Assembly: GCA_002432945.1 (NCBI GenBank)
Contig: DJHE01000027.1
Location: 1 to 39,359, forward strand
Source: Synergistaceae bacterium UBA5827
GTDB taxonomy: Bacteria > Synergistota > Synergistia > Synergistales > 79-D21
Direction of reading: 5' to 3'
Length of the DNA stretch: 39,359 nucleotides
The notes under the pieces are model-generated. The model saw only the letters and a list, made by a program, of their open reading frames with translations, was not told the origin of the DNA and did not search any database. Positions 3,061 through 39,359 of the stretch are shown here, one piece after another. Positions within the stretch are counted from its first letter, which is position 1; the number at the start of each line of letters is the position of its first letter. The translations under genes were made by a program, and so were the position numbers.

Positions 3061-3071
3061 GGGCCTTCACC

Positions 3072-3239: not shown

Positions 3240-3241
3240 GT

Positions 3242-3409: not shown

Positions 3410-3414
3410 GACAC

Positions 3415-5304: not shown

Positions 5305-5368
5305 GCTGCCTTTCACCCCCTATCGATTTCGGGATCACCGATTGGCTCGAGCGCGACTTCCAAAAACA

Positions 5369-5983: not shown

Positions 5984-6032
5984 CCACCCCCTGTCTCCAA
6001 TCAGTTTTTTATCTAGGCTTAGCAAATAATAA

Positions 6033-6141: not shown

Positions 6142-6161
6142 CCTAAGGGGGGGTGAGGAAC

Positions 6162-6854: not shown

Positions 6855-6911
6855 GACAAGTAGGTTTGGAGCTTCAATAAAGGATTTCGAAAGGAAAGGT
6901 AGGCGCTTTCT

Positions 6912-7520: not shown

Positions 7521-7579
7521 TTCATAAAAACACTTTTTCTTTTACCCATCACGTAAAACTTTTTCTTGACCGGAGGCTA

Positions 7580-7924
7580 TTGGTGGACATATACTATAGC
7601 TCGAAAGCTCTCAGAGATAGATGTTCGACAGAAAAAAAAGGCATTCGGTACTGGGGAGAACCGCTAGCCAAGAAGATACGACAGAGAATCAAAGAGTTTG
7701 AAGCCGCGACTAACTTGGGACAAATCAGCACACTCCCTCCGCCTAGATGTCATGAACTAAGGAATAATCGAGCAGGGCAATTTGCAGTTGTAATAAGCGC
7801 CAACATGCGGATTATCTTCGAACCCTACTACGAACAGGTTCCCTTATTGCCAGACGGCGGAGTGGATAAATCGAAAGTGACAAGAATCCGGATCCTGGAG
7901 GTGACTGACTACCATGACGATTAA
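7580..7924 (+). CDS. higB: HigB-type (RelE superfamily) toxin
   Basis: RCHELRNNRAGQFAVVISANMRIIFEP...IRILEVTDYH; upstream palindrome TTTTAC-N7-GTAAAA at 7540-7558. Confidence 0.85.
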   Translation: MVDIYYSSKALRDRCSTEKKGIRYWGEPLAKKIRQRIKEFEAATNLGQISTLPPPRCHELRNNRAGQFAVVISANMRIIFEPYYEQVPLLPDGGVDKSKVTRIRILEVTDYHDD

Positions 7925-9026: not shown

Positions 9027-9050
9027 CCCGCGCTTCTCCAAAGGGGTCGT

Positions 9051-10682
9051 TTGAGAATGCCTCCCACACCCACGCGCTTTATCCCAGCAGCAGCCTATGC
9101 CCGTTGCTCCCTTCGTGAACAGGTCGAAAAGGGATTATCCATTCCCGCACAAATTGAGGAAATCCATCGATGGAGCAAAGAACACGGATACGAAATCGTA
9201 GCCGAATTCGTCGACGCCGGCCGCCGAGGATCTGACGACACGCGGGAGGAATTCGTCAGGTTACGCAAGCTTTCCTCCGAGAGAAAATGCCCGTGGAAGG
9301 CGATTATCATCTGGAAATCGGATCGTATGGCCAGAGACACCGAACAAGCGGCAGTGTTCAGAGGGATTCTCCGCCGCAATGGAATTGATCTCCTATCTGT
9401 TACGGAACCGAATCTCGATGGTCCTATAGGCGCCCTTATGTCCGCCGTTCTTGATGCTATCGCAGCCTTTTATTCTGGTCAGCTCGCAGAAAATGTCCTA
9501 AGAGGACAGAAACAAGGAGCCAGAGCCGGCTTTGTTCAAGGTGGCATTGCCCCGTTTGGTCTAAAAAAAATCGCAATCGAAAACGAGTATGGAAAGACAA
9601 AATGGAAGTACGCTCCTGATCCCGCAACGGCACCGTGGGTCCGATGGATTTACGATAGATACGGCGAAGGAGCGGCAATGATCGATATCGTCAAGGAACT
9701 CAATAAGCGAGCGGTCCCAACTTTAAGGGGAGGGCGTTGGCAAACCTCGCTGATTTCCAAAATCCTAAATCGACATCAACAGACCTATCTCGGTTCTCTT
9801 GTTTACAACCGAGTCAGGCTTCCAAAGGGAGCCGTGACCCAAATCCCTAAATCCCCGGATGAATGGGTTGTCACCCCGGGAGCGCATGATCCGATCATCA
9901 CCATAGAGCAGGCAGAAAAAGTAAATCTTGCTCGGCAAGGAAGGCCCAGCCTTACAGCAAATCGCCAGAATGCCACCCCCACCCTCTTAGATGGACTTGT
10001 TTTCTGTGGAGTTTGTAAGAGAAGGCTGATAATTGGATCGGGACGTTGGTTAAAAGCTGGTAGCGAGGTTACTGAGCCTTACTATCACTGCTCACCCAAA
10101 TCCTTCGCCAGGCTAAAAGGAATAGAAACCGAGGCGTCAGCGCACCCCGGGTATTTTGTTCCCGTCAATGTTCTTGCTCCGATAGTGACCGAAAAAATTC
10201 GCGCAAAAGTTTTGGCAGATGGCTTTGTCGATAGCCTGCAAGATCATATAGCACGGCTGGAGACCGTCCAGAAGAAAAACACCCAGAAGCAACTAGCTGC
10301 CCTAGAAAAGGAAAAGGAGAAAATAAAGGCTCGCCGGAATGCTCTAGCCGAAGCCGTCCTTGATGGTTCTATCCCGAGAGATGTTGCGAGAGGGAAACAA
10401 CAGGAGATGACTCTTGCTCTTGGCGAGTTGGAGAAACAGCTTGATCAATTATCCGTGCCAGTACCTCCAAGCCCTTTGCTCCGGCTGAGCGAACTACCCC
10501 CCGAAGCCTTCCGCGAAGCCTTGAAAACTCCCAATGGCCTAAGGGCTGTAATGGTCTCCTTGGTCGAAAAAATTGAAACCTGGCCGGACCGGCATGGGAC
10601 CATTTTCTACTCCGAATTATTCCCTCCCGAGGAGATCCGTTTTCCCAGGCGCCCTAGGGGTCGGCAAGCCCTCAAAGCTTAA
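9051..10682 (+). CDS. Large serine recombinase (integrase)
   Basis: YARCS catalytic motif, SDRMAR, recombinase domain (APFG, YLG), LLDGLVFCGVC Zn ribbon, coiled coil. Confidence 0.93.
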   Translation: MRMPPTPTRFIPAAAYARCSLREQVEKGLSIPAQIEEIHRWSKEHGYEIVAEFVDAGRRGSDDTREEFVRLRKLSSERKCPWKAIIIWKSDRMARDTEQAAVFRGILRRNGIDLLSVTEPNLDGPIGALMSAVLDAIAAFYSGQLAENVLRGQKQGARAGFVQGGIAPFGLKKIAIENEYGKTKWKYAPDPATAPWVRWIYDRYGEGAAMIDIVKELNKRAVPTLRGGRWQTSLISKILNRHQQTYLGSLVYNRVRLPKGAVTQIPKSPDEWVVTPGAHDPIITIEQAEKVNLARQGRPSLTANRQNATPTLLDGLVFCGVCKRRLIIGSGRWLKAGSEVTEPYYHCSPKSFARLKGIETEASAHPGYFVPVNVLAPIVTEKIRAKVLADGFVDSLQDHIARLETVQKKNTQKQLAALEKEKEKIKARRNALAEAVLDGSIPRDVARGKQQEMTLALGELEKQLDQLSVPVPPSPLLRLSELPPEAFREALKTPNGLRAVMVSLVEKIETWPDRHGTIFYSELFPPEEIRFPRRPRGRQALKA

Positions 10683-23340: not shown

Positions 23341-25863
23341 TCAGGCGATCTCGATTATCAGGAAAAACTCCAACTTATCCCGAAGCCCCGCACTATCCGG
23401 CACGAACAGCCTGCACTCGAGGGCCTCTTCCGGCGCAACCCGGATGTTGAGCGGCCGGCTTCCGCCCCCGCCGAGGAGGGCTTTCAGGCTGACCTCCACC
23501 CGCGGGCTGACCATATCCCCGACGAAAAGCCGGAACAGGATCGTATCGGCCACGGGGGCGAGTTCAGCTGCCAGGGCAGAACGAATCAACACGACCATGC
23601 TCTCCAGGAGCAACTCGCTTTGATCGTTCTTTCTTTCCTCTCTCCCGATAAGGATTGCGACCTCGGCATCGTCAAAGGGCGGCTTGCCGGAAAAAGTAAA
23701 ACATCCGGACATCCGGCTTCTCGGATTCAACGTTTGACAATACAGGTGTCCCCCGTTATTTGCCTGGGGTGAGGGCACGTCTTTTTCCCTCCAGCATTCC
23801 TTTAAAATGTGAAAGAAGCTCGGCCGAGGGACCCGCTGAACCGCAGTCTTACACCTCTTGGGCAAGGGTGCACAGGCCATCGTGTCGAAATCACCGACCC
23901 AGCCGCGGGGACGCATGCTCGGGACCACCAGCGTTTCGGACACCCTTTGCCCGGCCTCGCTGCGCACCGCCACGAAGGCGGTTTCCGTCGAAACGATCCC
24001 GGCCGAGATGGATTCCTGTGCCAAGGCTTCACGGATCCTTTCCGACACCTGGAGTTCCCGGTTTTCCGGGTAGAGCGGTTTCTCATGCTCTTCCGATTCC
24101 AGGCCCATGGAGCCGAGGATTTCCTCGATTTCCCGTTCCGAGGGCTCCGTTTTGAGAAGCCTCTCCAAACGGGAAACGCGCAGTGCCCCGCAAAGGCCTT
24201 TCACCGACTCTGCCGGGTTTTCCGACGGGGCGGATTCCGCGATCGATTCCCCATCGGGGCCCGCCAGGACCAGCCCCGGCTTTTCGGCCCCCTCGAGCCA
24301 GCCGGCCACCCAGACCGGCCGCCCAATCGGCAAGTCCCCCAGTTCGATTCCCTCCCGGGCGCCGGCCTTGACCGCCCATTTCACGCCGGAAGCCTCTTGG
24401 ATCCGTCCGTCTTTCGCGCAAAGGAGCAGATCCTGCCGCAGCGGGCGTGCCATCCCCTCCAGGACTTCCTCAAGCGCCGTGGTGATATCCGATTCCTCCG
24501 GGTTGCTGGTCAGGAAGACGGCCTCACCGCCGCTTTTTTCCGCCAGGCCGGTGACCAGGGGCTCGTTGGGCGCCGAATCGATGCAGACGACGCTGACCCG
24601 GCGGTGGTTTTTCTTTTCCGATTCACGATCGGCCAGTTGGAAAATCCTTTCGGCATCCGTCACCTGGCCGTCGGTCAGGATCACGACGTGCCGGGCAAAG
24701 TTACCGCGAGTCCTCGGCATTCTCAGGGACTGCTCAAGGGCAACCCCCAGTTCAGTTCCCCCGCGAGGCCTGATGTGATCCAACAGTGAAAGGGCTTCCG
24801 AGACATCCTTTTCCCCAAGGGGGAGGCCCCGCGTACCGAACCATCCAGCATTGCGGAACCATTCCACCGTTTGGTCGAAATACCCGACGTTGAAAACCTC
24901 ATCCTCGCCCAGCCCAGACAGCAGGCTCCGGACCGCCCACGAGGCCGCCTCCCACTTCGGGCCGCCCATTGAACCCGACCGGTCCACCAGCAGGATGATC
25001 TCCCGGGGCACGGTTTCATGGACCCTGGTGTCCGGTGCCTGGACGAGCGCCAGGAACCACTGCCGCCCCTCCTCCCCCCAGCCGAACGAACGGAGGGAAA
25101 TCCCCTCTGTGCCGGATTCCAGGGGGAAACGGATCACGCAGTCCTGGTCCGGGAATGCGCCCTGGTCCTCCAGGAAGAGGCGGTAAACCTGCCCCAGGGA
25201 TTCCGTCCTAAGGGGGTGCGTGAGGCTCTCCGGAGCCCCGAGTCCGCGGCACTCCAGTTCCAGATTGAAGCGGTAGCCGGGATCCCACGCCACGCCCAGG
25301 GGCTGCCGACGCAAAGCTTCCATTCCCTCGTCATCCCGGGTGTAGCGGGGGGCCAGCGTCAGGGGAACCCGCAGTTCGCAAGCCCCGCGCCGGGGACGCA
25401 GCCAGAGCAGGAACCCCGTTTCGACCGTCACGTCCTCCCCCGATCTCAGCCCCGCGATCCGCAAGGTGAAGACACCCGCCCCCTCTTTTTCCAGGAGCAC
25501 GGCCTGGCGCCCCTCTTCGAAGGCCTCCTCGTAATCATCCCGGGCCGTTTCGCGACGGGCGAGAGTCGTCTCGATGCGGACCTTCCCGAAGGAAACCGCC
25601 ACCGACTTCACCACCGCATCCCCGGGAAGGGGAAACCGGTAAACGGCCTCGACCGCCTGTTCGGGCTCCATCCCAGGCCCCCGGAAGACCTGTTTCAGCC
25701 CCAGGTTCCCAAGCGGGCCGTCGAGACTCCCGGAAAGGACCATTTCCTTCAGGGGGCAATAAGAGATGCCCTGTTGCCGTCCCTTGCCGGGGCCTTCCAG
25801 GAGCAAAGTCGGAATTCCGTCCCGGTAAAGCGCGTTGAAATGACGTTTGTCAAACATGCACAT
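23341..25863 (-). CDS. VIT + vWA domain protein
   Basis: EAVYRFPLP..VV VIT motif; LVDRSGSM MIDAS, GGTEL, ILTDG; start ATG 25863 or 25857. Confidence 0.88.
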   Translation of the reverse strand: MCMFDKRHFNALYRDGIPTLLLEGPGKGRQQGISYCPLKEMVLSGSLDGPLGNLGLKQVFRGPGMEPEQAVEAVYRFPLPGDAVVKSVAVSFGKVRIETTLARRETARDDYEEAFEEGRQAVLLEKEGAGVFTLRIAGLRSGEDVTVETGFLLWLRPRRGACELRVPLTLAPRYTRDDEGMEALRRQPLGVAWDPGYRFNLELECRGLGAPESLTHPLRTESLGQVYRLFLEDQGAFPDQDCVIRFPLESGTEGISLRSFGWGEEGRQWFLALVQAPDTRVHETVPREIILLVDRSGSMGGPKWEAASWAVRSLLSGLGEDEVFNVGYFDQTVEWFRNAGWFGTRGLPLGEKDVSEALSLLDHIRPRGGTELGVALEQSLRMPRTRGNFARHVVILTDGQVTDAERIFQLADRESEKKNHRRVSVVCIDSAPNEPLVTGLAEKSGGEAVFLTSNPEESDITTALEEVLEGMARPLRQDLLLCAKDGRIQEASGVKWAVKAGAREGIELGDLPIGRPVWVAGWLEGAEKPGLVLAGPDGESIAESAPSENPAESVKGLCGALRVSRLERLLKTEPSEREIEEILGSMGLESEEHEKPLYPENRELQVSERIREALAQESISAGIVSTETAFVAVRSEAGQRVSETLVVPSMRPRGWVGDFDTMACAPLPKRCKTAVQRVPRPSFFHILKECWREKDVPSPQANNGGHLYCQTLNPRSRMSGCFTFSGKPPFDDAEVAILIGREERKNDQSELLLESMVVLIRSALAAELAPVADTILFRLFVGDMVSPRVEVSLKALLGGGGSRPLNIRVAPEEALECRLFVPDSAGLRDKLEFFLIIEIA

Positions 25864-26215
25864 CGTCTCCCTTTTCCGGTTTTTTCTCCGAATCGCCCCC
25901 GAAAAGGTTCCTGAGGGCACCGACCAGGCTTTCCTCCGTGAGCAGGCCGCTCGCCATCATGGCCAGGGGAGAGGTCCCCGCCCGGCAGACCGCGCCGCCC
26001 ACCAGCAGGATCCGCTTGAGCGTTTCCGGCTCCATGCCCCCCTTTTCGAGTTTCGCCTCGAGGTACTCCAGCTGGGCCACGTTGCGCCCCTGCGGGACCG
26101 CCTTGCCCGTTTCCCAGCGGCTCAGCGCCACCGCCGTGACACCCAGGATCTTGGAAAACTCCTCCTGGGTGCAGCCCAGCGCCTTCCTCAAACAAAGAAT
26201 TTCTTCCGCGTTCAT
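25850..26215 (-). CDS. XRE-family HTH regulator
   Basis: LRKALGCTQEEFSKILGVTAVALSRWETGK; overlaps the VIT gene start. Confidence 0.88.
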   Translation of the reverse strand: MNAEEILCLRKALGCTQEEFSKILGVTAVALSRWETGKAVPQGRNVAQLEYLEAKLEKGGMEPETLKRILLVGGAVCRAGTSPLAMMASGLLTEESLVGALRNLFGGDSEKKPEKGDDVHV

Positions 26216-26321: not shown

Positions 26322-27968
26322 TTACCTGTAATCGTCGTCGTAGACCGCTCCGCTGGGACCTTCCCACACGGGTGGCAAGGGCGGCGTCTGGTCCGGGCAA
26401 TCTTTGGGAAGGACATATTTTGCCAGTTCAGGCCTCGGGATAGTCAAGCCGTAAGCCACCGCCAGGCGGGGAAAATCCTTTGGAGCCCCATCGAAATCGG
26501 AAGGAGCTGTCAAGGGAGTCACCTCGTAAGGTCCCCATCCATCGCAATGCCAACATCGTCCGAATATTTCCCCGACATAGGGGACCTTGCTTCCCCCACC
26601 ACACACGAACACCTTGACGTTGTTCTTATACCACTGGCTTTCTTTTCTTCTCTTCTTGAACGCTTTTCCCCAGGCCGGATAACGGGCTTCTTCCCATATT
26701 TTATGCAGTTCATCTTTCACGATCGTCTGAATTTCCGGCCCCGTCGCTGTAAGGCTCTCCATGACCTTTTGCAGCTCGGAAAAATCCAGGTCTCGGCCAT
26801 TTCTCCGGTTCCACGTGGCAACTTTGTCTTCAATCTTCGCCATGCCGCCGGGGAAAGTGACCGCGTTGTACCAGTAGGCGCATTTGTCTTCTTCCTCATC
26901 CTCGCAGAGGTTGAAAATCGAGAAATCCGTGGTTCCGGCCCCGAAGTCGATCACACCGTGGATCTTGGTTTCCGCGGCAAGAGAATTCACGTAACAAGCC
27001 ATCTGTGCAACCGCCTCCGGGACGAGGTGGATTCTCGATTCACTCGTTTCGGAATCCGGAGTCCTTTCCCATATCGAGGCCGCGCTTTCGAGCAGCTCGA
27101 TCGCCCTTTGCCCACCCCAATTCTCTTCTATGGCTTCCGCCACGTTAACTGCCTTCTGGAACCCTGCTCGCACTTCTTTCATCTGGTACGTGTCGATCGG
27201 AATGCAAACGTTGAAGTTAACCAACTGCTCATGGTCGAAAGTTCGCCCAAGTTGTTGCTTGATTTTCCTGATGAGGTAAGCAAGAAACGCTGCTACCATG
27301 TACCCGGGCTTCAATAAAGCCTGGTCGACCTGCTGGTTTTCACAATACCGGTCGAAATAGGCTTTCATGTGTTTATCCAGGAAAACGGGGTTGATGTCTC
27401 CGGCGAAGAGAATTTTCAGGTACCTAGCGCCCTCGTACCAGGGTTTGCCCCTGAGGAAACGGTCGGCTTCGTCCCCGAAAAGAATCCTTCCACCGTCAAA
27501 AGCGACAAGCGATGGAACTGCGTAGGGCATTTTCGGACTCGACCCCAGGTTCAGGGGCAGCACCTTACCCGCACCGCCGAGGACCCGATAGGCTAACTTG
27601 GTGTAACTCGTTCCGAAATCGATCCCCACCCAGATCTTGATTCTTTTGGATGGTAGGGGGGTGATCTTGCCCCGTCTCTCGGTTGATTTATCGGTTTCTT
27701 TGAACCTTGGATTTACAATCGTCTCCGCGATCTTCCTGTCTGTTTCTTCCGGAGACAGGAAAATATCCTCCTCAAGGTTCTCTTTCCCCGGTGACGGCTT
27801 TACCGCAAAAAGCCCAGGGACAGGAGGGGAAAGCCTTGCAGGAGCAACAGGCGGGAAAGTGACGGACTCGGTAACAGGCGTTTCTGCCCTTCCCCACTTG
27901 TCCTCTTTCTGGCTTTCCCCGGCTTCATTCTTCTGGAACAGGGACTTGAACCATTCAGTAAAACCCAT
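26322..27968 (-). CDS. Hsp70/actin-like ATPase-fold protein (NBD only)
   Basis: VGIDFGTSYTK (phosphate 1), VPEAVA, IDFGAGTTDFS (phosphate 2), VCGGGSK (adenosine); no Hsp70 substrate-binding domain. Confidence 0.82.
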   Translation of the reverse strand: MGFTEWFKSLFQKNEAGESQKEDKWGRAETPVTESVTFPPVAPARLSPPVPGLFAVKPSPGKENLEEDIFLSPEETDRKIAETIVNPRFKETDKSTERRGKITPLPSKRIKIWVGIDFGTSYTKLAYRVLGGAGKVLPLNLGSSPKMPYAVPSLVAFDGGRILFGDEADRFLRGKPWYEGARYLKILFAGDINPVFLDKHMKAYFDRYCENQQVDQALLKPGYMVAAFLAYLIRKIKQQLGRTFDHEQLVNFNVCIPIDTYQMKEVRAGFQKAVNVAEAIEENWGGQRAIELLESAASIWERTPDSETSESRIHLVPEAVAQMACYVNSLAAETKIHGVIDFGAGTTDFSIFNLCEDEEEDKCAYWYNAVTFPGGMAKIEDKVATWNRRNGRDLDFSELQKVMESLTATGPEIQTIVKDELHKIWEEARYPAWGKAFKKRRKESQWYKNNVKVFVCGGGSKVPYVGEIFGRCWHCDGWGPYEVTPLTAPSDFDGAPKDFPRLAVAYGLTIPRPELAKYVLPKDCPDQTPPLPPVWEGPSGAVYDDDYR

Positions 27969-27990
27969 GATCCCACTCTCCTCACCGGAA

Positions 27991-30900
27991 TCAGTTATTC
28001 CTAATCTCCAAACATCCGGCACAAAGGATCCCATGTTCGACTTTCAGTTTTCTCCTAGCCTCAAGTTCCTCTACTTTTACTTTTTTTTCAGCTTCAAGGT
28101 TTCTAATCTCACCCTCTAGCATCCGAACAATCCTTTGTTCAACGACCGGTCTCTGGAGTTGGTTTTGCAATTTTTCTTTCCTTTGACTCAAGGTTCGGTC
28201 GTATGAGGAAACCAGCGTTTGAATCCGCCTATCTATGAAAACGTTATTGGCAATACTCAGCCTTTCTTTTATCTTCGCACCTCTGACCTGCATCAAACTT
28301 TCTGCCTTGTCCACAGCGTTTTGCATATCCTCTTCCTCGAAAGTGGGAGGTGGGGTAATCGAGCTTTTCCCCTTTTCCAACATTTCTCCGAAAAGGAATT
28401 CCGCATGTTCTTGATCACAGGCTTCATCCAGATACTTGTTCAGGACAACTGTCTGGAGCAAATGTTCTTCCTTGGCGGCTTCAACATCCAGCATGAAGAG
28501 AAAGAAGAAATAGAGCCCTTCGGGAATTTCGCGAGTATGCAAACATACGAAGTGACAGCTGCTAGGGGCTGCTTCTTGTCGATCAAGGAAGCTCACTATC
28601 CCACGCACGAGAGGGTGTAGTAAGTTGATAAACTCCTTTTTCGGATTTTGGAAGGCGATATCCCCATTGAAGGTGATTTCCCTCCATTTCCCATGCGTCA
28701 AGGCAATAGAATTGAAATCTCTCAATAAATCTTCCCTTGCTAGAATTTTAATCAAATCGTCTGCGGGCTGAAGCCGGCCCCATTGTTTTTCTGGGTCATA
28801 GTCGAGCTTCGTCAAAGGAGCATGGTTTTTTAGAAAGTCTTCCACAAGACCCCTTATTTGGTCCGGGGTGATATATAGCCGGTTCTTCTGTATCCTCGCA
28901 ACTTCCTCCTGGAAAAATGCATCCGTACCGATAAAACGAGCGGCGTCCGATTCTATCCTGCTCAATTCAATTTCCTTATTCTGCAATACAAGCAACTTTC
29001 TACCGAGTGCTTCCTGCTCTTCCTCAGGCGTCATTTCTCTGCTGAAAAGTTCATAGGTAAGTTCTTTTGTGATTTCTCCCAGGATGAGCTCAAGTTCCCC
29101 AATGGACCGCTCAAAGATGCCGATCCTTTCGTACAGCCTTTTCAGGATCCTTTCTTCGATCGTGTCCTTGATCCAGAAATGGTAGATGGCGATGAATTCC
29201 GATTCCTGGCCGATGCGGTCCAGTCGGCCGATCCTCTGTTCCACATCCATCGGGTTCCAGGGAAGGTCGTAGTTGAAAAGGATATGGCAGAACTGGAAAT
29301 CCAGTCCTTCGGACCCGACCTTGGAGGACAGAAGAACTTCGATCTCCGGGTCTTCCCTGAAGGCGTTGATCTTTTCTGCCCGATCGTCTCCGGTCACGTC
29401 CCCCGAAATCAGGGCACACCGGATACCGTCAGCGGTTAGGCGGCGCTGGAGGTATGAAAGCGTCCCCTTGAAGAAGGCAAACACGAGGATCTTGGGATTC
29501 GCTTCGGTTTGCCGAATGCTCCTGACCGACTGGATGAAGGCCTCGTATTTCGAGTCCCTGGCGTTATCTGGCCAGATACTCAGGAGTTCCGACAACTTTT
29601 GCCTTGCCACAGCCACGGTTGGAACCTGTTCCTCCCCGTTGCCGTTATTTCCGTTGTCTTCGTCGAGCAACGGATCCAAGTCCTCGAGGCCCTCGCCATT
29701 CTCGAGCAGGATTTCGCCCTCTTCCCGCATTTTCTGCCGATAATGTTCGACCATCGCCGGTATGGACGACGCCAACCGCCGTTGCGGGGTGTTCAAGATC
29801 CATGTTTCGATGAGTGCAGTTTGTCCCTTGCTCGCGGAAATTGCGCGCACGTAATTCGTCACTGCGTCATAAAAAGCCCTTTCGTAATCCGTAAACTCGA
29901 CGAGAACCGGATGGGCCTGCCTCCTGGTGAAGTTTTCGTGAACCTCACGACGCCTTGTCCGGGTGTAAATGTGACTGATTAAGTTCAGGGACGAAAAAGC
30001 CCTTAGGGCTTCGATCTGGGCCCGGTTACGCTCTTTTTCGGGAGTTGCGTTTTCCACTGTCTCCTTCAGTGCAACCAAGGCGCTGCAGGCTTCAAGGTAA
30101 TACGGGTTATTTCGTATGATTTCGTACCGCCCCGCAGATTCCAGGCATTCTCGGGCAGAAGAGAGGTCCGGAGGAACCCTCGACAGGGCATTTTGAGCCT
30201 GAACCACATTCTCATTGACCTTGAACCGGAACTCGGCCCCGTGTATCTCGGGGAATTCCTGACGATCCAATATCTGGAGCAAGTGAAAGAGGTTTTGTAT
30301 TCCTAGCTGAACCGGGGTCGCCGTCAGCATCACCATCGAGGTCGCCCCGGCGGAAAGAGCCCTTCCCACTTGCCACTGCTTCTTTCCCGGGTTTCTCATA
30401 TGATGAGCCTCGTCCACAATGACCATATCGAAATCGGGGGCAGTCTCATGTAATCGTTTAAGCAAACGGCTAGACCGGATCGTTTCAAGGGAAATGATCC
30501 CATTGAACTTGACCCTTTCCGGCGAAGCCTCGTATTGGTCAAGAATCTCCATAAAGTCAGCAACTTTGAAGATATTAAACTCCTCGTCAAAACGTGACTT
30601 CATTTCCCGTTTCCACTTATCTCGAAGCCCCGAAGGACAGACAATTAAAACTCGGCTTGCGGAAAACCGGGCCCGGAACTCAGTCAGGATCAACCCGGCT
30701 TCGATCGTCTTTCCCAAGCCAACTTCATCGCAAATCAGCACTCGGTTTTTCTCGGAATCCAGGAACTTGATCAGAGGTTTGAACTGGTAAGGATAAAAGC
30801 GGGTCCTGGAAGCATTGAAAGCATAAAGAGTGTTCTTGATCGGCTGGTTCTTCGAGAGACGTTTAACGGTAATGATTTTCAGAAATTCTTCAAAACCCGA

Positions 30901-31113
30901 AAATATACTCGCGACAAAATCTTGATAGGCCCCCCTCTCCGGGTTGAAGGGAAGCAGGTCGTCCTCCATGACCGACTTCACCCCATGCGGGTGCGGCCAC
31001 AAAACCTTGTAGTACTGCACGCCCCCCTCAGGAACTAGGACCTTTCGAACCGTGCCATAGCGAGTGGAATCGTTCCTGTCCTGAACATCATCACCGACCT
31101 GGAAACGTGCCAT
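27991..31113 (-). CDS. SNF2/RapA-like SF2 helicase
   Basis: DEVGLGKT, VDEAHH, LTATP, SEGLDFQ, YDLPWNP, EQRIGRLDRIGQ; N-terminal Tudor/SH3-like segment; C-terminal coiled coil. Confidence 0.93.
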   Translation of the reverse strand: MARFQVGDDVQDRNDSTRYGTVRKVLVPEGGVQYYKVLWPHPHGVKSVMEDDLLPFNPERGAYQDFVASIFSGFEEFLKIITVKRLSKNQPIKNTLYAFNASRTRFYPYQFKPLIKFLDSEKNRVLICDEVGLGKTIEAGLILTEFRARFSASRVLIVCPSGLRDKWKREMKSRFDEEFNIFKVADFMEILDQYEASPERVKFNGIISLETIRSSRLLKRLHETAPDFDMVIVDEAHHMRNPGKKQWQVGRALSAGATSMVMLTATPVQLGIQNLFHLLQILDRQEFPEIHGAEFRFKVNENVVQAQNALSRVPPDLSSARECLESAGRYEIIRNNPYYLEACSALVALKETVENATPEKERNRAQIEALRAFSSLNLISHIYTRTRRREVHENFTRRQAHPVLVEFTDYERAFYDAVTNYVRAISASKGQTALIETWILNTPQRRLASSIPAMVEHYRQKMREEGEILLENGEGLEDLDPLLDEDNGNNGNGEEQVPTVAVARQKLSELLSIWPDNARDSKYEAFIQSVRSIRQTEANPKILVFAFFKGTLSYLQRRLTADGIRCALISGDVTGDDRAEKINAFREDPEIEVLLSSKVGSEGLDFQFCHILFNYDLPWNPMDVEQRIGRLDRIGQESEFIAIYHFWIKDTIEERILKRLYERIGIFERSIGELELILGEITKELTYELFSREMTPEEEQEALGRKLLVLQNKEIELSRIESDAARFIGTDAFFQEEVARIQKNRLYITPDQIRGLVEDFLKNHAPLTKLDYDPEKQWGRLQPADDLIKILAREDLLRDFNSIALTHGKWREITFNGDIAFQNPKKEFINLLHPLVRGIVSFLDRQEAAPSSCHFVCLHTREIPEGLYFFFLFMLDVEAAKEEHLLQTVVLNKYLDEACDQEHAEFLFGEMLEKGKSSITPPPTFEEEDMQNAVDKAESLMQVRGAKIKERLSIANNVFIDRRIQTLVSSYDRTLSQRKEKLQNQLQRPVVEQRIVRMLEGEIRNLEAEKKVKVEELEARRKLKVEHGILCAGCLEIRNN

Positions 31114-31207
31114 GATCTCCCTCCTGTTCCTTTCAAGAGAATCGAGATCTTAAGCAATGCCAGAATTTCAGGGATTTTCTCTTACAAGGTCTTCCCCTTA
31201 GGTGGCC

Positions 31208-32164
31208 TCATAGATAATTCTTTTCCAGCATCGGCAGATTTCCGCCAAGACTGGCCATCTGGGCAGCGGCCTCCATTCCTACGAAGGCTACTTGCTTCTG
31301 CTCTGCGAAATCGCCGGCATGGTCCAACCTGGGAACCGCCATTCGGATCGAACAGGATTTCCCGGTCTTGACCACCTGCATGCCTTCCTTCAGCCAGGGT
31401 TCGCACGCCAGGGCAAGATCCTGCAAGCGATCCGCCTTAACAGGAGTCTGCAGGTCGATAGTGCCTTCCTTGAGCTTGTGATATATCCAGAATCCTTTGG
31501 GGAAATCGAAGGGGTGAAACTCGATCCAGGATGCGTCCGCCGGTTTCGAGCCGGGTTCTTTCATCCGCAGGTCCGGGAATCTCGCTGTGACGCCTTCCCA
31601 GTAATTGCGCCAGAAAAGGGTCACCTTGTCGTCCTGTTTCGGGGAATAGCCTCGACGGTTCTGATCGATGGCATGCTTGAGGAGTTCCTGGCGGAATCTC
31701 GCCCTTTCCGGGAACCCTTTCAAGCTGGCCCCAACCAATTCGGAAAGGGTCTCGTAAGACACCTTCGTTTCGTAAAGCCCCGCATCGGGCGTGTTCCGAA
31801 GGTAGTACTCCGGGGCAAGGATGCAGGTCGTGAAACCCTGCCATAGCCCTTCATCTATTCCCACTTCTCCCCGTTTGCGGTATCGGTTTGCCTGGTCTGG
31901 CTGAGGAATGGCATCGACCTTGTTTTCAATCAATACCGCGTGAAGGGAGCCCTCTGGGTCCGAAAACTCGACGACCAGGTCCGATTCACCAAGAGTCGGG
32001 TGACAGACCGAGTGCCACGCGCCCTTGAACTTCCAATCTTGGCCGGGGGAAAGTCCGACCAAAGAGCGAAATTTCGTCCTGAAATCTTCGTTCGCCCACA
32101 GTTCTTCGAGGATCAGTAAGTCGATATCGCGTTCGAGCACGGCTTCCACAGGCATTAAGTCCAC
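31208..32164 (-). CDS. PD-(D/E)XK nuclease-family protein
   Basis: ERDIDL...GESDLVVEF...VLIENKVDA..QP.QANRY; AAGGAGG RBS before GTG. Confidence 0.8.
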   Translation of the reverse strand: MDLMPVEAVLERDIDLLILEELWANEDFRTKFRSLVGLSPGQDWKFKGAWHSVCHPTLGESDLVVEFSDPEGSLHAVLIENKVDAIPQPDQANRYRKRGEVGIDEGLWQGFTTCILAPEYYLRNTPDAGLYETKVSYETLSELVGASLKGFPERARFRQELLKHAIDQNRRGYSPKQDDKVTLFWRNYWEGVTARFPDLRMKEPGSKPADASWIEFHPFDFPKGFWIYHKLKEGTIDLQTPVKADRLQDLALACEPWLKEGMQVVKTGKSCSIRMAVPRLDHAGDFAEQKQVAFVGMEAAAQMASLGGNLPMLEKNYL

Positions 32165-32286: not shown

Positions 32287-34344
32287 CTATTCCCCTACCT
32301 TCAGGTACGTCACCTCGAAAGCCTTGCAGGGACGGTACTGCTGACCTCGGTTGGCCAGGACGAAGGCGTCGTTCATCTCGTACTGCTGGTAAATGTCCAG
32401 CCCCCGGTCTAGGCTGATCTTCCAGCCCGTATCGGTGACGATATGCCGGGCATGCATGCCACCAGACGTATTGAGCTCCCAGGTGAAGGTAACCCCGGCG
32501 ATGGCGACGTTTTCTTCGATCTTGGCAAAGTTGTCCGCCTGTTTGTCCGGGTACATGCCATCGGGGGTCGTTATAAGGTGAATCTTGACCTCCTCGTCGT
32601 CGCCTTTAAGCCGGATAACCGTCTCGATCAATTCCATGAGATTCCGTATCTGGTAGAAGGCCCGGATGTAGGGGTCGGTGATCGTGATCGACGCCGCTCC
32701 CTTCAGGTACGGCCCGAAAAGGGCATCGAAGGTGACTCCCTTCTGGTTTTCCTGGAAAGCGTAATGCCCTGGTTTCGGTTCCTTTTCGGACACACCCCGC
32801 TCAGTTTTCTTCTCGTTCGCGGTATCGGCCACGGATTCCACAAGTCCCATTTCGTCCGCGCCTGCGGCAGGTTTTCTTTGGAAATACTGGGGATACTGCT
32901 GTTCCTCCAGAGTGAAAAGGTGCTGGGTCTTTCCCGATTTCAGGTCCTTGTAGCCGAAATCGACCGCAGCGTAAGTCGTATCGATCCGCATCAGCTGGTC
33001 CTTGACGCGTTTCCGCCCCTCCATGCTGAACCGGAAGATCTCCTCTATTTCTTCCCTCGATGCCTCCTGGTGGGGAAAAAGGATTTTCATCAGCCCGGAG
33101 AACGTCTTCTGCACGCCGTCCCGGTCCCGGGTGGAAATCTCCTTGAGCAGTTCGAAGTCCTCGTTGTAAAGGTGGGAGTAATCCCGGTTCCGCAGGTCCC
33201 TCATGATCTCGGCCAGGTAATCCACCACGAAACCGTACCCTTCCGAGAACATCTCCCCGCGGATGATGTCGACTTCCCAGCCGGGCAGGTAGAAATGCAG
33301 CCGGTCCAGGAAGGCCGAGTCGTGGTACTTGGCGGGCAGATCGTCGAAAAGGTCGGCATGCTTGAGCATGTAGGGAAGGTTGTGCTGCGTGTTGCCCACG
33401 AAGACCATGGAGGCCTCGGCCCCTATAGTTTCGACCCCGCGGGAGAAGGTCTTGTTGGCCATGTAGTTCTTGAGGATGTCGACGAGGGCCTTGTCGCTGG
33501 TCTTGTCCTTGCCGGCGAACTCGTCGAAAGCCACCGCGTCCCAGTAGCCCACCAGCCCAAGTTTCCCGTTCGAGTTGTTGACGAAAAGCTTCGGAACGGT
33601 GACTTCGCCGCCCGAAATCAGGATCCCGTGGGGGGAAAACTCCGAATAGATATGGGACTTGCCCGTGCCCTTCGGCCCGAGCTCAATGAGGTTGTAATTC
33701 CTTTCGCAATAGGGGATGAGTCGAACGAGCTGGAACAGCTTGCTCCTTTTCCCGAAAAGCTCCGGGTTGAACCCGATGCTCTGGACGAGCAGGTCGATCC
33801 ATTCGTCCGTGGTGAACTGTTTCCGGGCCGCAACGTACCGGTCGAAATCGAAGCTCGAAAGCTGGATGGGCTTGAGCATCCCCAGGATCCAGGGGCAAAT
33901 CTTGATATCCTCCGAGTATTCGTATTCCAGGTCGGCGATGCACCAGACCCCGCTCACGAGAAGGCGGGGGTGCCGCTTGACCGTGTCCGTGTCGACCAGG
34001 ACTTCCTTGATCCCTAGGTTGGCGAACTGGGCCTCGTAAACACCCCGCTTGTCGTTCAGGGACACCGAAACCTTGTCGATGACCTTGTGGCGCCCCTTCT
34101 CCTTGATCGTCGACTTGACGAGCCCCGCCTCGTTCCGGTGAACGTAGTGCTTCCTGAGGATCTCCTTGACCGTTTCGATGCCCGACTCGATGCTCTTTTC
34201 GTCCTGGGTGGCGCAATACTGCCCCAGCAGGTATTCCAGGACGTAGGAGGGAACGATGGCGTTTCCCTTGACCGTCTTCACCAGGTCCTTGCGGACCACC
34301 AGTCCCTCGAAATGCTCATTGATTTTCCGGTCCAGGTCGTTCAT
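32287..34344 (-). CDS. brxL: BREX BrxL-family AAA+ protein with C-terminal MIT_C/PLD-like domain
   Basis: VPSYVLEYLLGQYC, ELGPKGTGKSH Walker A, AFDE, AFLDRLH; directly after pglZ. Confidence 0.9.
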   Translation of the reverse strand: MNDLDRKINEHFEGLVVRKDLVKTVKGNAIVPSYVLEYLLGQYCATQDEKSIESGIETVKEILRKHYVHRNEAGLVKSTIKEKGRHKVIDKVSVSLNDKRGVYEAQFANLGIKEVLVDTDTVKRHPRLLVSGVWCIADLEYEYSEDIKICPWILGMLKPIQLSSFDFDRYVAARKQFTTDEWIDLLVQSIGFNPELFGKRSKLFQLVRLIPYCERNYNLIELGPKGTGKSHIYSEFSPHGILISGGEVTVPKLFVNNSNGKLGLVGYWDAVAFDEFAGKDKTSDKALVDILKNYMANKTFSRGVETIGAEASMVFVGNTQHNLPYMLKHADLFDDLPAKYHDSAFLDRLHFYLPGWEVDIIRGEMFSEGYGFVVDYLAEIMRDLRNRDYSHLYNEDFELLKEISTRDRDGVQKTFSGLMKILFPHQEASREEIEEIFRFSMEGRKRVKDQLMRIDTTYAAVDFGYKDLKSGKTQHLFTLEEQQYPQYFQRKPAAGADEMGLVESVADTANEKKTERGVSEKEPKPGHYAFQENQKGVTFDALFGPYLKGAASITITDPYIRAFYQIRNLMELIETVIRLKGDDEEVKIHLITTPDGMYPDKQADNFAKIEENVAIAGVTFTWELNTSGGMHARHIVTDTGWKISLDRGLDIYQQYEMNDAFVLANRGQQYRPCKAFEVTYLKVGE

Positions 34345-34354
34345 GATCCCCCTC

Positions 34355-36850
34355 CTAGAAATCGAAATCGCTGGTGATCGCTCTTCGCACGGTGTAGCGC
34401 ACCGATCGGTACTCCCGGTAATGGCTGGTATCAGGGATGAGTTCATCAAGCCTCAGGAAGACTTCCTGGCCGTTGAACTGTTCGGCTTTTTTCGTCAGGA
34501 TGAAGCGGACCGATCTCTCCCTTGCCCGCATCTCCGGTGAATCCAGGTTGAAGTCCAACTCCTGAAGGTCTGAAAGCAGCTCACCCGTTAGAGAGTAGAT
34601 CCCGGCCCGGAGCCTGCGCGCCTTCCTTTTTTCTGTTACGGGCTCGACCTGGAAGAAGGAAACGGAAAGCTGGCCCGAAGTGATGAGAGTCGAGGTCCCC
34701 TTGATGATATCGACCTCTACCTGGCTGACATCGCTCTTGCGTTTCTTGTTGATGTGGATGACCGGCAGAACGACCTCCTGCAGGCTCCCCCCGCCGTGAA
34801 CGAAGCGAATGGTTGCACCGGTGAGCCTGAGTCGCTTTATCGAGCGGGCCAGCCGGACCTGGACGTCACCCTCCAGCCCCATTTTCCCTGTATCCAGGCC
34901 CCAGAGTCCTGAATTGGGTTTCAGGCCGCGCCCCAGGATAAAGCGCCGGTCTCGCATGAGGATCTCGGTTCCCTCAAGTCCCAGGTCCGTGAAATCGCTT
35001 TCGTGGACTTCACCTGATTGGAAAAGGAAACCATGGTCGGCTGTCACGAGGATATTGCTGGCGTTTGCCGCAGTGAGCTTTTTAGCGAGCCTGACCAACT
35101 CGGTCAGGGTCTGTTCCGCCGCTTCAAAAACGGTGTCCTCTGTTGAGACACTCCCCCCCGCTGCGTCGATGCGGTTGTGGTAAATATAGAGGACCTCGCA
35201 GTCCTTGAGCAGGGCGCGGGCTTCATCGCCATTCATGGCCAGGAAGTCTTCGGCCTTTACAGTTTTCCCTCGGGGTCCAAGGGTTGCCTGCAGGATCTTT
35301 TCACGGTTCGCCAAACCACGGCTATCCCTTCCATCAACCATGACGGTTCCGGCTCCATCACCCAAAAAGGCAATTTCCCTATTAGGCAAGAGCGACGCCA
35401 TCCCCAGCTGGGTGAAGCTCGGGAGCATGGCAAGCATAGGCTCGAGTTTCGCCTCGTACCGGTCTTCCTTCCGGATCGCGGTTAACAGCTCCTGTCCCAG
35501 CTCGTAGCGCAAAGCATCGGAGATGATGACGACAACCTTTTTCCCTTCTGCAGTGAAAGGTTCAACCCAGTGCCGATAAAAGTCTCGCTGGAGATAGACC
35601 TCATCAGCCTTCCAGGCATCCAGCCTGTCCAGAACAGACTGCCAGCTGTCGTTCAAAGGAAGAAGGAAAACATTGACGTAAAGGTTTTCAACCTTCTGTG
35701 AGAGGCTTTCCAGTAAGCTTCGCTCTCCCGATTTCCGTGCATGGTAGCAATACTGCCGGTAAAGCTGGTCCAGCAAGTGCCAGGAACGGGCATAACGCTG
35801 CACCCCTTCGCCAAGACTCCCGATGGAGAGATCAGCCTCGCCCAGGGCCTGGAAGAAGCGCGAAGCACAGAGAATCGCCTCGTAAAGGTCCTCGAAATCC
35901 CCAAACCAGTGCCCTTGCCTGCGGAGTCTCACGAATTCCGCACAATCGACAGCGGAAAGGGTCTTCTGCTCCACTTCCCCAAGGAGGGAGCCGAGGATAT
36001 TCATGTCCACGCAACGGAAGAGGTCAAGTTCCATCAACTCCCGGTAGTCCTTGGAGGCAATCCCCTTTTCGATAGAGAGGTCCCGGGCAGCCAGGTCCGA
36101 TAGGGTCCTGAAAGAATCACCGTGCCGCTTGCTGTCCTTCCAGTGTTTCAGGAAAACAAGGGCATCCGCGTTTAAAGAACCCCCTTCTCCCAGGACACGC
36201 TCGTATCCCGCCAGGAAGAGGTCCAGGAGAAAACCTTTAAGACTCGGCTTTTCAGGCTCGTAACCGAACGCCACTTTCAACTGCTTCCAGAAGACACCCC
36301 AGAGGCCGGCACGATCAACGAGCCGTTGACGCTCCTCGCGCTCTTCGGCCAATTCAGCCAGGAGGCTCAGCAGGATCTCGTCGATTCGTGGTTCCGAATC
36401 GGTACAGATGGCCAACATCTTCAGTTCGAGGAGGGCTGGCGTGTCCGCTTTTCCCAGAATCTTTTTCAGGGCATCCATGCGCTTGGCGGAGGCAAAGAAA
36501 GACCGATGGTTCCTCAAGACCTCGGCAAAGTGGAAATCCAGGCCCAGCTCCGAAAGCCATAACCCAATCTGGTCCGCCCGGAAGACACAGTTCGCAAGCT
36601 GTACGTCAAGAAGCCAGTTGTCCAGGTCCCTGGGTTGAGGGCCTTCGTGGTAGAGAAGGAACTTTTGGTTGGGAGCCTCACGAAGGATCCGGTGCTTTAT
36701 CGCCAGCTGGTTGTTGAGGATTTCCAGCTTCTCTACGCCGGGGACCTGCAAGGATTCATAAGCCTCCCGCATCTCCCGCTCGGCGTCGTACCAGAAAATG
36801 ATCCGGTTTTTACCAAAAAGACGGGTCAGAGCCTCTTCAATCCCACTCAT
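34355..36850 (-). CDS. pglZ: BREX type 1 phosphatase PglZ
   Basis: RIIFWYD, IISDALRYE, LPSFTQLGMASLLP, YHNRID, TADHGF, FVHGG.SLQE. Confidence 0.95.
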   Translation of the reverse strand: MSGIEEALTRLFGKNRIIFWYDAEREMREAYESLQVPGVEKLEILNNQLAIKHRILREAPNQKFLLYHEGPQPRDLDNWLLDVQLANCVFRADQIGLWLSELGLDFHFAEVLRNHRSFFASAKRMDALKKILGKADTPALLELKMLAICTDSEPRIDEILLSLLAELAEEREERQRLVDRAGLWGVFWKQLKVAFGYEPEKPSLKGFLLDLFLAGYERVLGEGGSLNADALVFLKHWKDSKRHGDSFRTLSDLAARDLSIEKGIASKDYRELMELDLFRCVDMNILGSLLGEVEQKTLSAVDCAEFVRLRRQGHWFGDFEDLYEAILCASRFFQALGEADLSIGSLGEGVQRYARSWHLLDQLYRQYCYHARKSGERSLLESLSQKVENLYVNVFLLPLNDSWQSVLDRLDAWKADEVYLQRDFYRHWVEPFTAEGKKVVVIISDALRYELGQELLTAIRKEDRYEAKLEPMLAMLPSFTQLGMASLLPNREIAFLGDGAGTVMVDGRDSRGLANREKILQATLGPRGKTVKAEDFLAMNGDEARALLKDCEVLYIYHNRIDAAGGSVSTEDTVFEAAEQTLTELVRLAKKLTAANASNILVTADHGFLFQSGEVHESDFTDLGLEGTEILMRDRRFILGRGLKPNSGLWGLDTGKMGLEGDVQVRLARSIKRLRLTGATIRFVHGGGSLQEVVLPVIHINKKRKSDVSQVEVDIIKGTSTLITSGQLSVSFFQVEPVTEKRKARRLRAGIYSLTGELLSDLQELDFNLDSPEMRARERSVRFILTKKAEQFNGQEVFLRLDELIPDTSHYREYRSVRYTVRRAITSDFDF

Positions 36851-36873
36851 GAAAAGCCTCCTCCAAAACGCCG

Positions 36874-39359
36874 CTAATCTTCATTTTCCAGGCCCTTGAT
36901 CGGCCTCAGCGCCTTGCCTAACTTGGCGTAGTTAACCTTCACCCCATCGTCGAGGTCGATTTCGATCATCTGGGCCGCCAAGGGGAACAGGACATTGCTT
37001 TCATATTCATCCAGTTCCTTGATGAGTTTTCGGATTTTCTCCATTTCCTTCAGGGCTGCCGTCTTGTCCTTGTTGGCGGTCTGTGGATTGGCCTCTACAA
37101 GCTGGAGATGTTCCATACGGCTCTTGAGTTTGGTGCGAAAATCCCTGAGGTAACTGTTCAGGACCACCGAAACGGTATCCGGACGATACCGGTGCATGTA
37201 GATGAGGGCATTGAAGCCGCCATTAGGGGAAGAGAAAAGCCAGTAAATGGGGCGCTTCTTGTACCGCTTCACGTGGTCGTCGTAAAAATCCTTCAGGAAA
37301 AATTTTCGAATGTCCTTGCCGATCGCGTTCTCGATGAAAGCGAGGTTCTCGGCATAGTGATCCTCCCCGAACGTGATTTTCAGGAACTTCTTGAACCGTT
37401 CGGTGATGTCATCGGAGAACCACTCGCCTTCAAGGATGGGGATGACGTTGTCCTCGTCGGGTGAAAAGGTGGGATTCGGAACCTGCCTCAGGTAGTCTTT
37501 TATCGTTTCGCCCTGGTTGGCCAGAATCAGGCCGGGCTTGTCCAGCGAGTAGCGGCCGAACATACAGCCCACAGCATAAGAGATCAGTTCGCGCATGGTG
37601 TCGGCCAGCAGCAATGCCTCCAGTTCTTCCTCGCTCTTGCTGTTGCCGTAACGATAGTGCGGGTTGCAGGTCAATGTGATTTCGCTAAGAGGCACATCCG
37701 GCGTCAGTTCGTCCTGCAGGCCGTAAGCCTCGATGAAGATGCGGTTGTTCTCTTCCTCCAGGTTCCACATTTTCTGCGTCATTTCTTTCCAGTGAGCGCG
37801 GACTTTCTGATACGTGTCTTTCAGTCTTGACTGACGGAACTCCGCATGTAACAGCGGAAGGCCGCTGAAGTTCCAAGATGTTTCATAGGAATCCCAGTCG
37901 GATTGGCTTTGCCCGATTAGTGTATGAACAACATCAGGCCTCTGCTGGATATCAGGAAAAGGGAATTTTGAGATTTGCCCCACCTCATAATTCATCGTGG
38001 GCATCAAAGCGCGATATAGGGTGTTCATCACAGGAGAGTTAAGGGCACCTAGAACAGGATGTAGTGATCTCCCATCGTTCGTAAATATCGAACAACCAGC
38101 AACATCAAAAAGGAACCCCGCAGGGAAATACCTGATAGAAAAACTACTAATTGTAACTTTAGACCAACTTGCAGAAGCAAGAAAATAACGATCAGGATTT
38201 CGAATAACGGATTTCGGTCTATTTGAAAAAAGCGCCTCTCCGTCATTTTCCCAATCTACAACATTGTCTTGATTCCCGTACCATTTCCTAAATCCGCCAC
38301 CCTTGTTGTACGGGAACCATCTGCAGCCTGATTTTTTGGCTTCTTCTCTAGAACCCATATTAAAACCAATATTAGTAATTGACGGTTCGTGCCATTGACG
38401 GAGAAAGAGTCCATTGTCCGCAGTTGCCAACCCTTGTTTTACATCGAAATAAGCATCGAGAGGCTTATTCAAATCGAATATTGATAATGCTCTATCGCTT
38501 AGCCAGTATGCTAATGGACTTCCATGTATACGGATAAAACTCGTTTGCGAAATCTTGTAAACAGAACTATCTTCGTTAAAGAACAGCTCCCTTATTTCAT
38601 CTGAACTTCGTACTATAGAATTCTTTTTAAAAAGCTTTTTATAGGTTCCTTTGCGTGAAATGGCCTCCCAATTAGGCGCTTTGTTCGGTTTGAATACCGT
38701 AAAAGCGATTGAGCCAAAATCCGCTCCAAAAATTCCGCGACCGAGGTGAAGCAAGGTGTCAATTTTAGATCTCTGCAACAGCGATCCTCGAAGATCTGCA
38801 AAGGACTGAAGAAACATCCACGAAGGAAGATTAATCATTCCCCAAAATCCGCCATCTTGGACAATTTGATCCAAACGTTCCATAAAACAAGTCATTAAAT
38901 CTGATTTTCCCAATGGGTATGCTTCAGTTAGAAAAACCTTGAGATGATCGTTCATTCCTTTTGCGCCCATATATGGAGGATTCGTAACCGAAACGTGATA
39001 GTTCATATTCAGATAATTGGCTTGTCGCAGGGCTTTTAGTATCTTTTGATGGGTCCGCGTAAGGAAGAGATTTTCCGAAACATTTTTCGATTCAAGAGTC
39101 TTAAGCATCCATTGCACATCGGGAATGGCTGGCCGGATAAGGGAACCGAAGTTGTCGGCCTCTTCGAATTGCCGCAAGGTAGTTTGGAGCGATTCAGTGA
39201 ACAGGTCTCGCCCAATATAATCCATGTAGTTTTTTAGTTCGCTCTTGTCGAACCGGACGTTCTCCAAAACACAGATGTTGGGCTTGACACCCTTCTGGAA
39301 AAAGCGGCGCTGCCTGGCACGGGCCTTCATGGTCAGGGCAAAGGCTGCCAGTTCTCCTG
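36874..39359 (-). CDS. pglX: BREX type 1 adenine methyltransferase PglX (5' end outside window)
   Basis: NFGSLI, TNPPYMG, NKGGGFRKWYGN, KRYKKRPIYW, DLDDGVKVNY; the frame stays open to the window edge. Confidence 0.95.
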   Translation of the reverse strand, partial: GELAAFALTMKARARQRRFFQKGVKPNICVLENVRFDKSELKNYMDYIGRDLFTESLQTTLRQFEEADNFGSLIRPAIPDVQWMLKTLESKNVSENLFLTRTHQKILKALRQANYLNMNYHVSVTNPPYMGAKGMNDHLKVFLTEAYPLGKSDLMTCFMERLDQIVQDGGFWGMINLPSWMFLQSFADLRGSLLQRSKIDTLLHLGRGIFGADFGSIAFTVFKPNKAPNWEAISRKGTYKKLFKKNSIVRSSDEIRELFFNEDSSVYKISQTSFIRIHGSPLAYWLSDRALSIFDLNKPLDAYFDVKQGLATADNGLFLRQWHEPSITNIGFNMGSREEAKKSGCRWFPYNKGGGFRKWYGNQDNVVDWENDGEALFSNRPKSVIRNPDRYFLASASWSKVTISSFSIRYFPAGFLFDVAGCSIFTNDGRSLHPVLGALNSPVMNTLYRALMPTMNYEVGQISKFPFPDIQQRPDVVHTLIGQSQSDWDSYETSWNFSGLPLLHAEFRQSRLKDTYQKVRAHWKEMTQKMWNLEEENNRIFIEAYGLQDELTPDVPLSEITLTCNPHYRYGNSKSEEELEALLLADTMRELISYAVGCMFGRYSLDKPGLILANQGETIKDYLRQVPNPTFSPDEDNVIPILEGEWFSDDITERFKKFLKITFGEDHYAENLAFIENAIGKDIRKFFLKDFYDDHVKRYKKRPIYWLFSSPNGGFNALIYMHRYRPDTVSVVLNSYLRDFRTKLKSRMEHLQLVEANPQTANKDKTAALKEMEKIRKLIKELDEYESNVLFPLAAQMIEIDLDDGVKVNYAKLGKALRPIKGLENED

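Follow-up and report, generated by a model that had tools for sequence, protein, structure and literature searches.

A conserved SNF2 ATPase and Hsp70-type nucleotide-binding domain pair as an unnamed candidate defence module beside a BREX-1 locus in Synergistaceae

The window analysed here, a stretch of 39,359 nucleotides from Synergistaceae bacterium UBA5827 (assembly GCA_002432945.1, contig DJHE01000027.1, positions 1 to 39,359), carries two adjacent genes on the minus strand that encode a RapA/DrmD-like SNF2 ATPase of 1040 amino acids (aa) (27991..31113) and a protein of 548 aa with an Hsp70-type nucleotide-binding domain (NBD) (26322..27968). The two genes are a conserved unit and are inherited together. 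Judged by its relatives the pair is a well-supported candidate for a credible, as yet unnamed module made of known kinds of parts, and as a compact two-gene candidate it is clonable. The first-pass annotation of this DNA had proposed a larger defence module that also included a PD-(D/E)XK nuclease gene lying just upstream. What stands of that proposal is that the SNF2 and Hsp70-NBD pair is conserved, matches no testable named system and leans towards defence neighbourhoods; the nuclease falls outside the unit.

Out of 18 loci found in GTDB one (L018, a PilM) was dropped, and among the 17 true matches that were kept the SNF2 gene lies directly upstream of the Hsp70-like gene in 13, follows in reverse order in one and has left remnants together with its partner in one, the last two being a contig end and a lone fragment; adjacency is thus seen in 15/17 GTDB loci. 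In metagenomes 22 of 29 loci scored at least 94 bits, and 17 of these have an adjacent SNF2 gene, three have no upstream sequence and two are fragmentary, on contigs no longer than about 2 kb. The counts leave out L048-L054 (36-67 bits; five PDC-M61B, one Hsp70 and one unscanned) as well as duplicates (L028-L030, L062, L063, L065-L067, L079; L003 and L066 are near-identical). Among 268 genomes of the phylum the partner is present in nine and a full SNF2 orthologue in eight, all of them among those nine; the two genes are adjacent in seven, split by a contig break in one, and in one the partner is accompanied by a SNF2 fragment at the start of a contig. Similarly, the partner is present in four of 401 genomes sampled from another phylum, and the SNF2 genes adjoining it are the four best SNF2 matches of the sample; five further genomes had partial SNF2 matches only, one of which (L117) was examined. 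The pair is found adjacent across many phyla, and its cultured carriers include Shinella (L075), Aminobacter (L076) and Sphingobium (L078). Sequence identities of SNF2 and partner are correlated over 30 loci (Mantel 0.83, 0/2000 permutations), and 16 of the 19 supported splits of the SNF2 tree recur in the partner tree where shuffles gave at most three, although kin in this comparison are not independent. In both trees an archaeon is placed among bacteria, consistent with transfer of the two genes as a unit. That some copies are broken or split (L009, L017, L037, L039, L115) agrees with gain and loss of a cassette.

Both proteins of the pair keep full nucleotide-binding motifs and neither has a recognisable nuclease. 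The SNF2 assignment is secured by Pfam matches and by a RapA-like fold, RapA being the top structural match of a model with a predicted local distance difference test score (pLDDT) of 87. The protein consists of an N-terminal beta module, two RecA lobes and, at the C-terminus, an alpha/beta domain that contains a long helical hairpin (927-1019), and its motifs (K135, DEAH at 234-237, QRIGRLDR at 626-633) are intact and invariant across 118 sequences. No nuclease domain was recognised by Pfam or in the model, in which the chain was folded as a whole, and a hidden activity of the C-terminal domain is conceivable. Sliding identity along the chain found the non-motor regions all about equally divergent, so that no partner-specific surface is singled out. 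The best PADLOC model is DrmD (PDLC02623; residues 8-1017, 531 bits), which is a likely annotation trap, as this model covers such helicases over their full length though other DISARM genes are absent. The NCBIfam cut-offs are missed both for DrmD (370.8 against 610 bits) and for RapA (231 against 576).

The partner has a short amphipathic N-terminal helix, a disordered linker, the NBD (109-524) and a proline-rich tail. That its domain is of the Hsp70 type was confirmed by structure: in a model with a pLDDT of 83, Foldseek finds DnaK at E 1e-14, and VIA-align gives Z scores of 25.0 for BiP, 24.9 for Sse1 (Hsp110), 23.2 for MreB and 20.9 for FtsA, with 339 residues aligned on BiP at a root-mean-square deviation of 3.4. 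The phosphate-1, connect-1, phosphate-2, adenosine and connect-2 motifs of the Hsp70/actin (ASKHA) fold are all present in an alignment of 119 sequences, and D117, K124, K185, E318 and D341 are invariant in them. The protein has no Pfam or NCBIfam match, including none to Pfam HSP70 at E<=0.01. A canonical Hsp70/DnaK chaperone is ruled out, as the chain ends about 25-30 residues after the NBD and the model contains no substrate-binding domain. The family comprises 445 clusters at 50% identity (E<=1e-30), so that a large unnamed Hsp70-NBD family missed by Pfam and NCBIfam is now defined. In some members in which the gene order is reversed, the Hsp70-like protein has a long extension at its N-terminus (L015, L033, L041; P0118, P0120, P0123, P0129, P0158); the extension is WD40-like in L015 and in five proteins, and L015 has an internal TGA stop.

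The N-terminal helix of the partner seems a reasonably good candidate for a membrane tether. In the window protein the predicted anchor is encoded at 27939..27968 on the minus strand (residues ~1-10), with the helix placed at residues 4-10 by the model at low confidence; the gene start used, an ATG at 27968, is backed by a ribosome-binding site although the longest open reading frame (ORF) begins at 28034. Such helices bring FtsA and MreB to membranes. The N-termini of 121 extended homologues show an amphipathic pattern in 78, a transmembrane helix in nine and neither of these in 34, against a background of 8/449 linker windows having the same pattern. The partner starts 35-60 bases inside the SNF2 gene in many loci, where the last strand of SNF2 becomes the helix when read in another frame, and in 7/30 loci no plausible partner start is found after the SNF2 stop. 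Dual coding of this kind, with the last beta-strand of SNF2 and the helix of the partner on the same bases in two frames, was observed in L006, L010, L012-L014, L016, L031, L032 and L035. The helix is retained without gene overlap in the window and, judged by eye, in 12 other loci, and it is present in 45/78 of the proteins without the overlap signature if the transmembrane ones are included.

The surroundings of the pair make a defence role likely. The ORFs within 3.5 kb were scanned with the PADLOC models (2023) at E<=1e-25 and compared with control stretches chosen beforehand, and defence models were matched by 27/111 neighbouring genes and 4/113 control genes (Fisher p 4e-6, calculated on 27/110). 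The neighbouring systems vary from locus to locus and include type I and type IIG restriction-modification (RM), Hma, Druantia, Gabija, CBASS, Pbe, GmrSD, Hachiman and TOTE. In two loci (L001, 9296-14050; L002, 15881-20569) a DEAD helicase of 1560-1580 aa fused to sigma-70 domains was seen beside the TOTE genes. It had been suggested at the outset that homologs of the Hsp70-like protein be checked for linkage to SNF2 and nuclease and for enrichment in defence islands; linkage to SNF2 and enrichment at the level of genes were found, while linkage to the nuclease was not and enrichment per locus has a p value of 0.07.

The pair could well be a two-gene anti-phage or anti-plasmid module in which the partner serves as a membrane-tethered switch that gates a DNA translocase, a reading built on sequence and structure comparison. 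The pair would have been added to a defence island at its tail end, and the N-terminal helix would hold the partner at the inner membrane where foreign DNA enters. There the partner, as an ATP/ADP switch and not as a chaperone, would bind SNF2, with the C-terminal domain or the helical hairpin of SNF2 as the probable contact site; that the two proteins form a direct complex is fairly likely. Once triggered, SNF2 would translocate on the incoming double-stranded DNA and displace replication complexes or RNA polymerase, the latter in the way that RapA moves it, or alternatively hold or present the DNA for other nucleases. In the sister clades a Tiamat-like GHL ATPase takes the slot of the partner. 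Protection from the membrane without a nuclease would be an unusual mechanism. It is tempting to speculate further, as a possibility that we consider doubtful, that a membrane-anchored Hsp70/actin-fold ATPase directly gates SNF2 at the point of DNA entry in a widespread system of nuclease-free defence, and that the pair is one branch of a family with interchangeable Hsp70-fold and Hsp90-fold (Tiamat-like) partners. Eukaryotic SNF2 remodellers are regulated by actin-fold subunits, and the pair would then be a prokaryotic parallel to them.

Several observations weigh against a membrane-gated defence module. No effector domain was found in the pair, whose defence function and mutual binding are putative. 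Per locus the enrichment is 16/31 against 4/18 (p=0.07), the control stretches come from Synergistota only, several of the PADLOC matches are themselves unproven PDC candidates or else helicases of a generic kind, and metabolic genes and transposases surround L012 and L013. On viral contigs there were five weak matches (35-45 bits) and none had the pair. As to the tether, 34/121 homologues fail the helix pattern and L076, L078 and L080 have no evident anchor; moreover a signature of overlap with the SNF2 tail is present in 43/121 homologues, and in these the helix may partly be a by-product of the overlap.

Neither gene encodes a nuclease, and the pair is often located directly 3' of RM-type operons (L002, L007, L008, L010, L014, L040, L055, L115). 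It is therefore conceivable, if rather unlikely, that it is a non-autonomous booster that remodels or presents DNA for an adjoining restriction-type system (type I/IIG RM, GmrSD, Hma or Druantia, and in the window BREX or the PD-(D/E)XK gene) and is not protective by itself. A booster of this kind is however at odds with the lack of a constant third partner and with the 15/31 loci that have no PADLOC match within 3.5 kb. An unlikely alternative is abortive infection with the roles reversed: foreign or damaged DNA would be sensed by SNF2, and the partner, once activated by SNF2, would form polymers on the membrane in the manner of FtsA or MreB, arresting the cell or killing it. The membrane helix, the actin-superfamily fold (Z scores to MreB and FtsA as above) and the probable effector that occupies the partner slot in the Tiamat-paired clade speak for it, but the fold is nearer to the NBDs of Hsp70 and Hsp110 (Z 24-25), and the broken partners found next to intact SNF2 genes (L015, L115) fit without singling out abortive infection. 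It is improbable that the pair is a non-defence mobile cassette for stress or transcription recycling, in which a RapA-like motor and its co-factor free stalled RNA polymerase while hitch-hiking in variable islands. RapA is the top structural match over nearly the whole chain (58-1034), L012 and L013 lie in non-defence surroundings and the locus-level enrichment is not significant; on the other hand the RapA score of 231 is far under its cut-off, the distribution is patchy (9/268 and 4/401 genomes), the enrichment is seen at the level of genes, and both genes have defence-type relatives.

That the nuclease, SNF2 and Hsp70-like proteins make up a three-part system or an accessory of BREX is very improbable and largely ruled out by gene neighbourhoods: the three genes are co-oriented and closely spaced in the window and the nuclease also follows brxL in a second genome (G011), but its profile is absent from all 31 other pair loci (upstream sequence of at least 1.2 kb being available in 26), the nuclease of G011 occurs without the pair, and the GC content of the nuclease gene is unlike that of the pair. 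The nuclease had been proposed as the effector of the pair, and with 0/31 the model of sensor, translocase and nuclease is left without its effector. A BREX-accessory role fails likewise, as pglZ or brxL is found in 0/31 other pair loci and none adjoins BREX-1; all that L006 and L036 have is a weak BrxC-like gene, located at a distance of 2-4 kb and on the opposite strand. The helicase is thus not consistently found by a brxC-pglX-pglZ cluster, and BREX was rejected both as a BrxH-containing type and as a BREX-1 system with this accessory. The nuclease and BREX are neighbours of the pair only.

The nuclease itself (PDDEXK_4-like, 318 aa, 31208..32164, minus strand) was correctly called as a PD-(D/E)XK domain. 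E11, D62, E80-x-K82, Q91 and Y95 are invariant, D62, E80 and K82 being so in 36 sequences, and PDDEXK_4 is matched by 32/36 family members at E<=0.05, with the window protein itself below the PDDEXK_4 cut-off; no solved relative was found by sequence. It is present in 2/268 genomes of the phylum. In both carriers it lies 3' of brxL (in the window and at 7211-10205 of L102), the two brxL genes being different, 39% identical and matched by different PADLOC models, and with n=2 the nuclease may be a BREX-tail passenger in the genus. Of ten plasmid homologues of the nuclease, the three whose surroundings were examined are likewise without the pair.

The order of genes on the minus strand is pglX, pglZ, brxL, nuclease, SNF2, Hsp70-like, helix-turn-helix (HTH) and VIT-vWA. 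The co-oriented trio 3' of brxL was described accurately, with three minus-strand ORFs separated by gaps of 122, 94 and 22 bp. The reported AT-rich patches hold for SNF2 (49.7% GC, 2nd percentile among 652 ORFs) and the Hsp70-like gene (53%, 7th percentile) and not for the nuclease (55.5%, 26th percentile). Each of the three is present in one copy in the genome. The closest named relatives are Synergistaceae and Aminivibrio. The BREX-1 context (brxL, pglZ and the 3' part of pglX, 32287..39359, minus strand) runs on past the window. Its pglX, pglZ and brxL exceed the NCBIfam cut-offs, and farther on are three unscanned ORFs that agree in size and order with brxC, brxB and brxA; the upstream BREX-1 is complete, the brxA, brxB and brxC labels being given from ORF size and order alone. 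Still further upstream (G000:C17, 45516-54391) there are five more co-oriented ORFs, two of them very AT-rich (34% and 44% GC), and the island extends over about 28 kb. Downstream of the pair the Pfam-identified HTH regulator and VIT-vWA gene (23341..26215, minus strand) are probably a separate unit, as only one other species has them close to the pair (L004, 1042-3890). A TTGACT-17-TATAAG site was noticed by eye 5' of the HTH gene and is missing from the list of the promoter scan; the promoter and terminator scan gave two promoter-like sites where 3.2 are expected by chance. Two metatranscriptome runs contained 7% of the words, on short contigs only, which is too sparse to bear on transcription. 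At 336-10682 the window has a prophage-like remnant with a terminase nuclease domain, transglycosylase, DUF5131, adenine methyltransferase, S24 repressor, HTH-IrrE gene and serine recombinase.

The SNF2 protein invites comparison with the DrmD protein of DISARM class 1, in which drmMI, drmA, drmB and drmC are adjacent. With the DrmD cut-off missed and no drmMI, drmA, drmB or drmC among the window proteins scanned, DISARM class 1 was rejected; in the 92%-complete genome the DrmA model matches only the SNF2 of the pair, drmB and drmC not having been searched genome-wide. What the pair shares with DrmD, ArmA and IetH is a RapA-like SNF2 ATPase of about 1040 aa that is reused with different partners. 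According to the accessible parts of the reports, ArmA of ARMADA is a relative of DrmD (10.1101/2025.09.15.676423) and IetHAS needs the DrmD-like SNF2 IetH (PMC13069673). The pair differs from all three systems in having no methyltransferase, YprA/DrmA helicase or protease partner and in having an Hsp70-type NBD as the constant one. ARMADA, composed of SNF2, a PglX-like methyltransferase and a YprA helicase, is ruled out as there are no such constant partners; a separate cluster of a 946-aa SNF2, a methyltransferase and a helicase adjoins the pair in L004 and the Hsp70-like gene in L011. E. coli RapA is the best structural match of SNF2 (Foldseek E 4e-39, 773 residues aligned), yet the window protein is 19% identical to it, falls under the family cut-off, is patchy and mobile, and has a dedicated partner gene.

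No description of the pair was found in the literature, where subscription papers and bioRxiv supplements, whose candidate tables could list it, were out of scope. None was present in the accessible parts of 10.1101/2024.04.30.591980, 10.1101/2024.01.29.577857, PMC7159879, 10.1101/2025.09.30.679545, 10.64898/2026.10.19.760177, PMC11090510, PMC13069673, 10.64898/2026.09.30.754977 and 10.1101/2025.09.15.676423. Hsp70-like domains are present in other predicted defence systems. CnuD of CoCoNuT is reported, in the accessible part of the source, to have an NBD, a substrate-binding domain and HEAT-like repeats, with degenerate motifs and McrBC partners (PMC11090510), whereas the partner described here is an NBD only, has invariant motifs and has no McrB among the neighbours scanned; CoCoNuT type III was ruled out on the NBD-only model and the lack of an McrB-type neighbour match, the comparison being made without a CnuD profile. 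PDC-M61B, a sister NBD family that belongs to the PADLOC candidate system PDC-M61 (M61A and M61B), is homologous to the partner across the whole NBD (HHalign 99.7%, 19% identity) and is likewise found in defence islands. Membership in PDC-M61 is nevertheless ruled out, as the window protein scores 34 bits where true members score 308-557, there is no adjacent M61A, and M61A is unrelated to SNF2. In five loci (L048, L049, L051, L052, L054) PDC-M61B was seen to be an Hsp70-type NBD with an M61A of about 490 aa, for which no Pfam or solved-structure match was found by sequence.

A further close parallel is with Tiamat-like GHL ATPases. Ten plasmid records matched SNF2, and the adjacent gene is Hsp70-like in six (two near-identical) and TmtA-like in four. 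In the 401-genome sample, the 11 full-length SNF2s that rank next after the four paired ones score 675-725 bits; the gene behind them is TmtA-like in 10/11, three of them interrupted or split, and encodes a type IIG enzyme in one. The Tiamat-paired clade (L104-L113, L071, L072, L074, L077) has GHL ATPases of about 1030 aa, and several of its SNF2s have an additional N-terminal region of about 170 aa. The Tiamat-paired helicases cluster apart from two Hsp70-paired clades, and with a support of 24.5 for the deep branching no direction of a partner swap is readable from the tree. Swi/Snf helicases are reported among the neighbours of Tiamat-like genes in the accessible part of a preprint that in this part has no occurrence of Hsp70 (10.64898/2026.09.30.754977), so the Tiamat-paired branch may be known in outline. 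The two kinds of locus share a layout of SNF2 plus a chaperone-fold ATPase, the sister SNF2 clade standing directly before TmtA-like genes; the partner of the pair differs in being Hsp70-fold, of half the size, without a nuclease-like domain and with a probable membrane anchor. This suggests that one SNF2 subfamily is a common motor for two unrelated chaperone-fold ATPases, and it links the pair to Tiamat-like systems.

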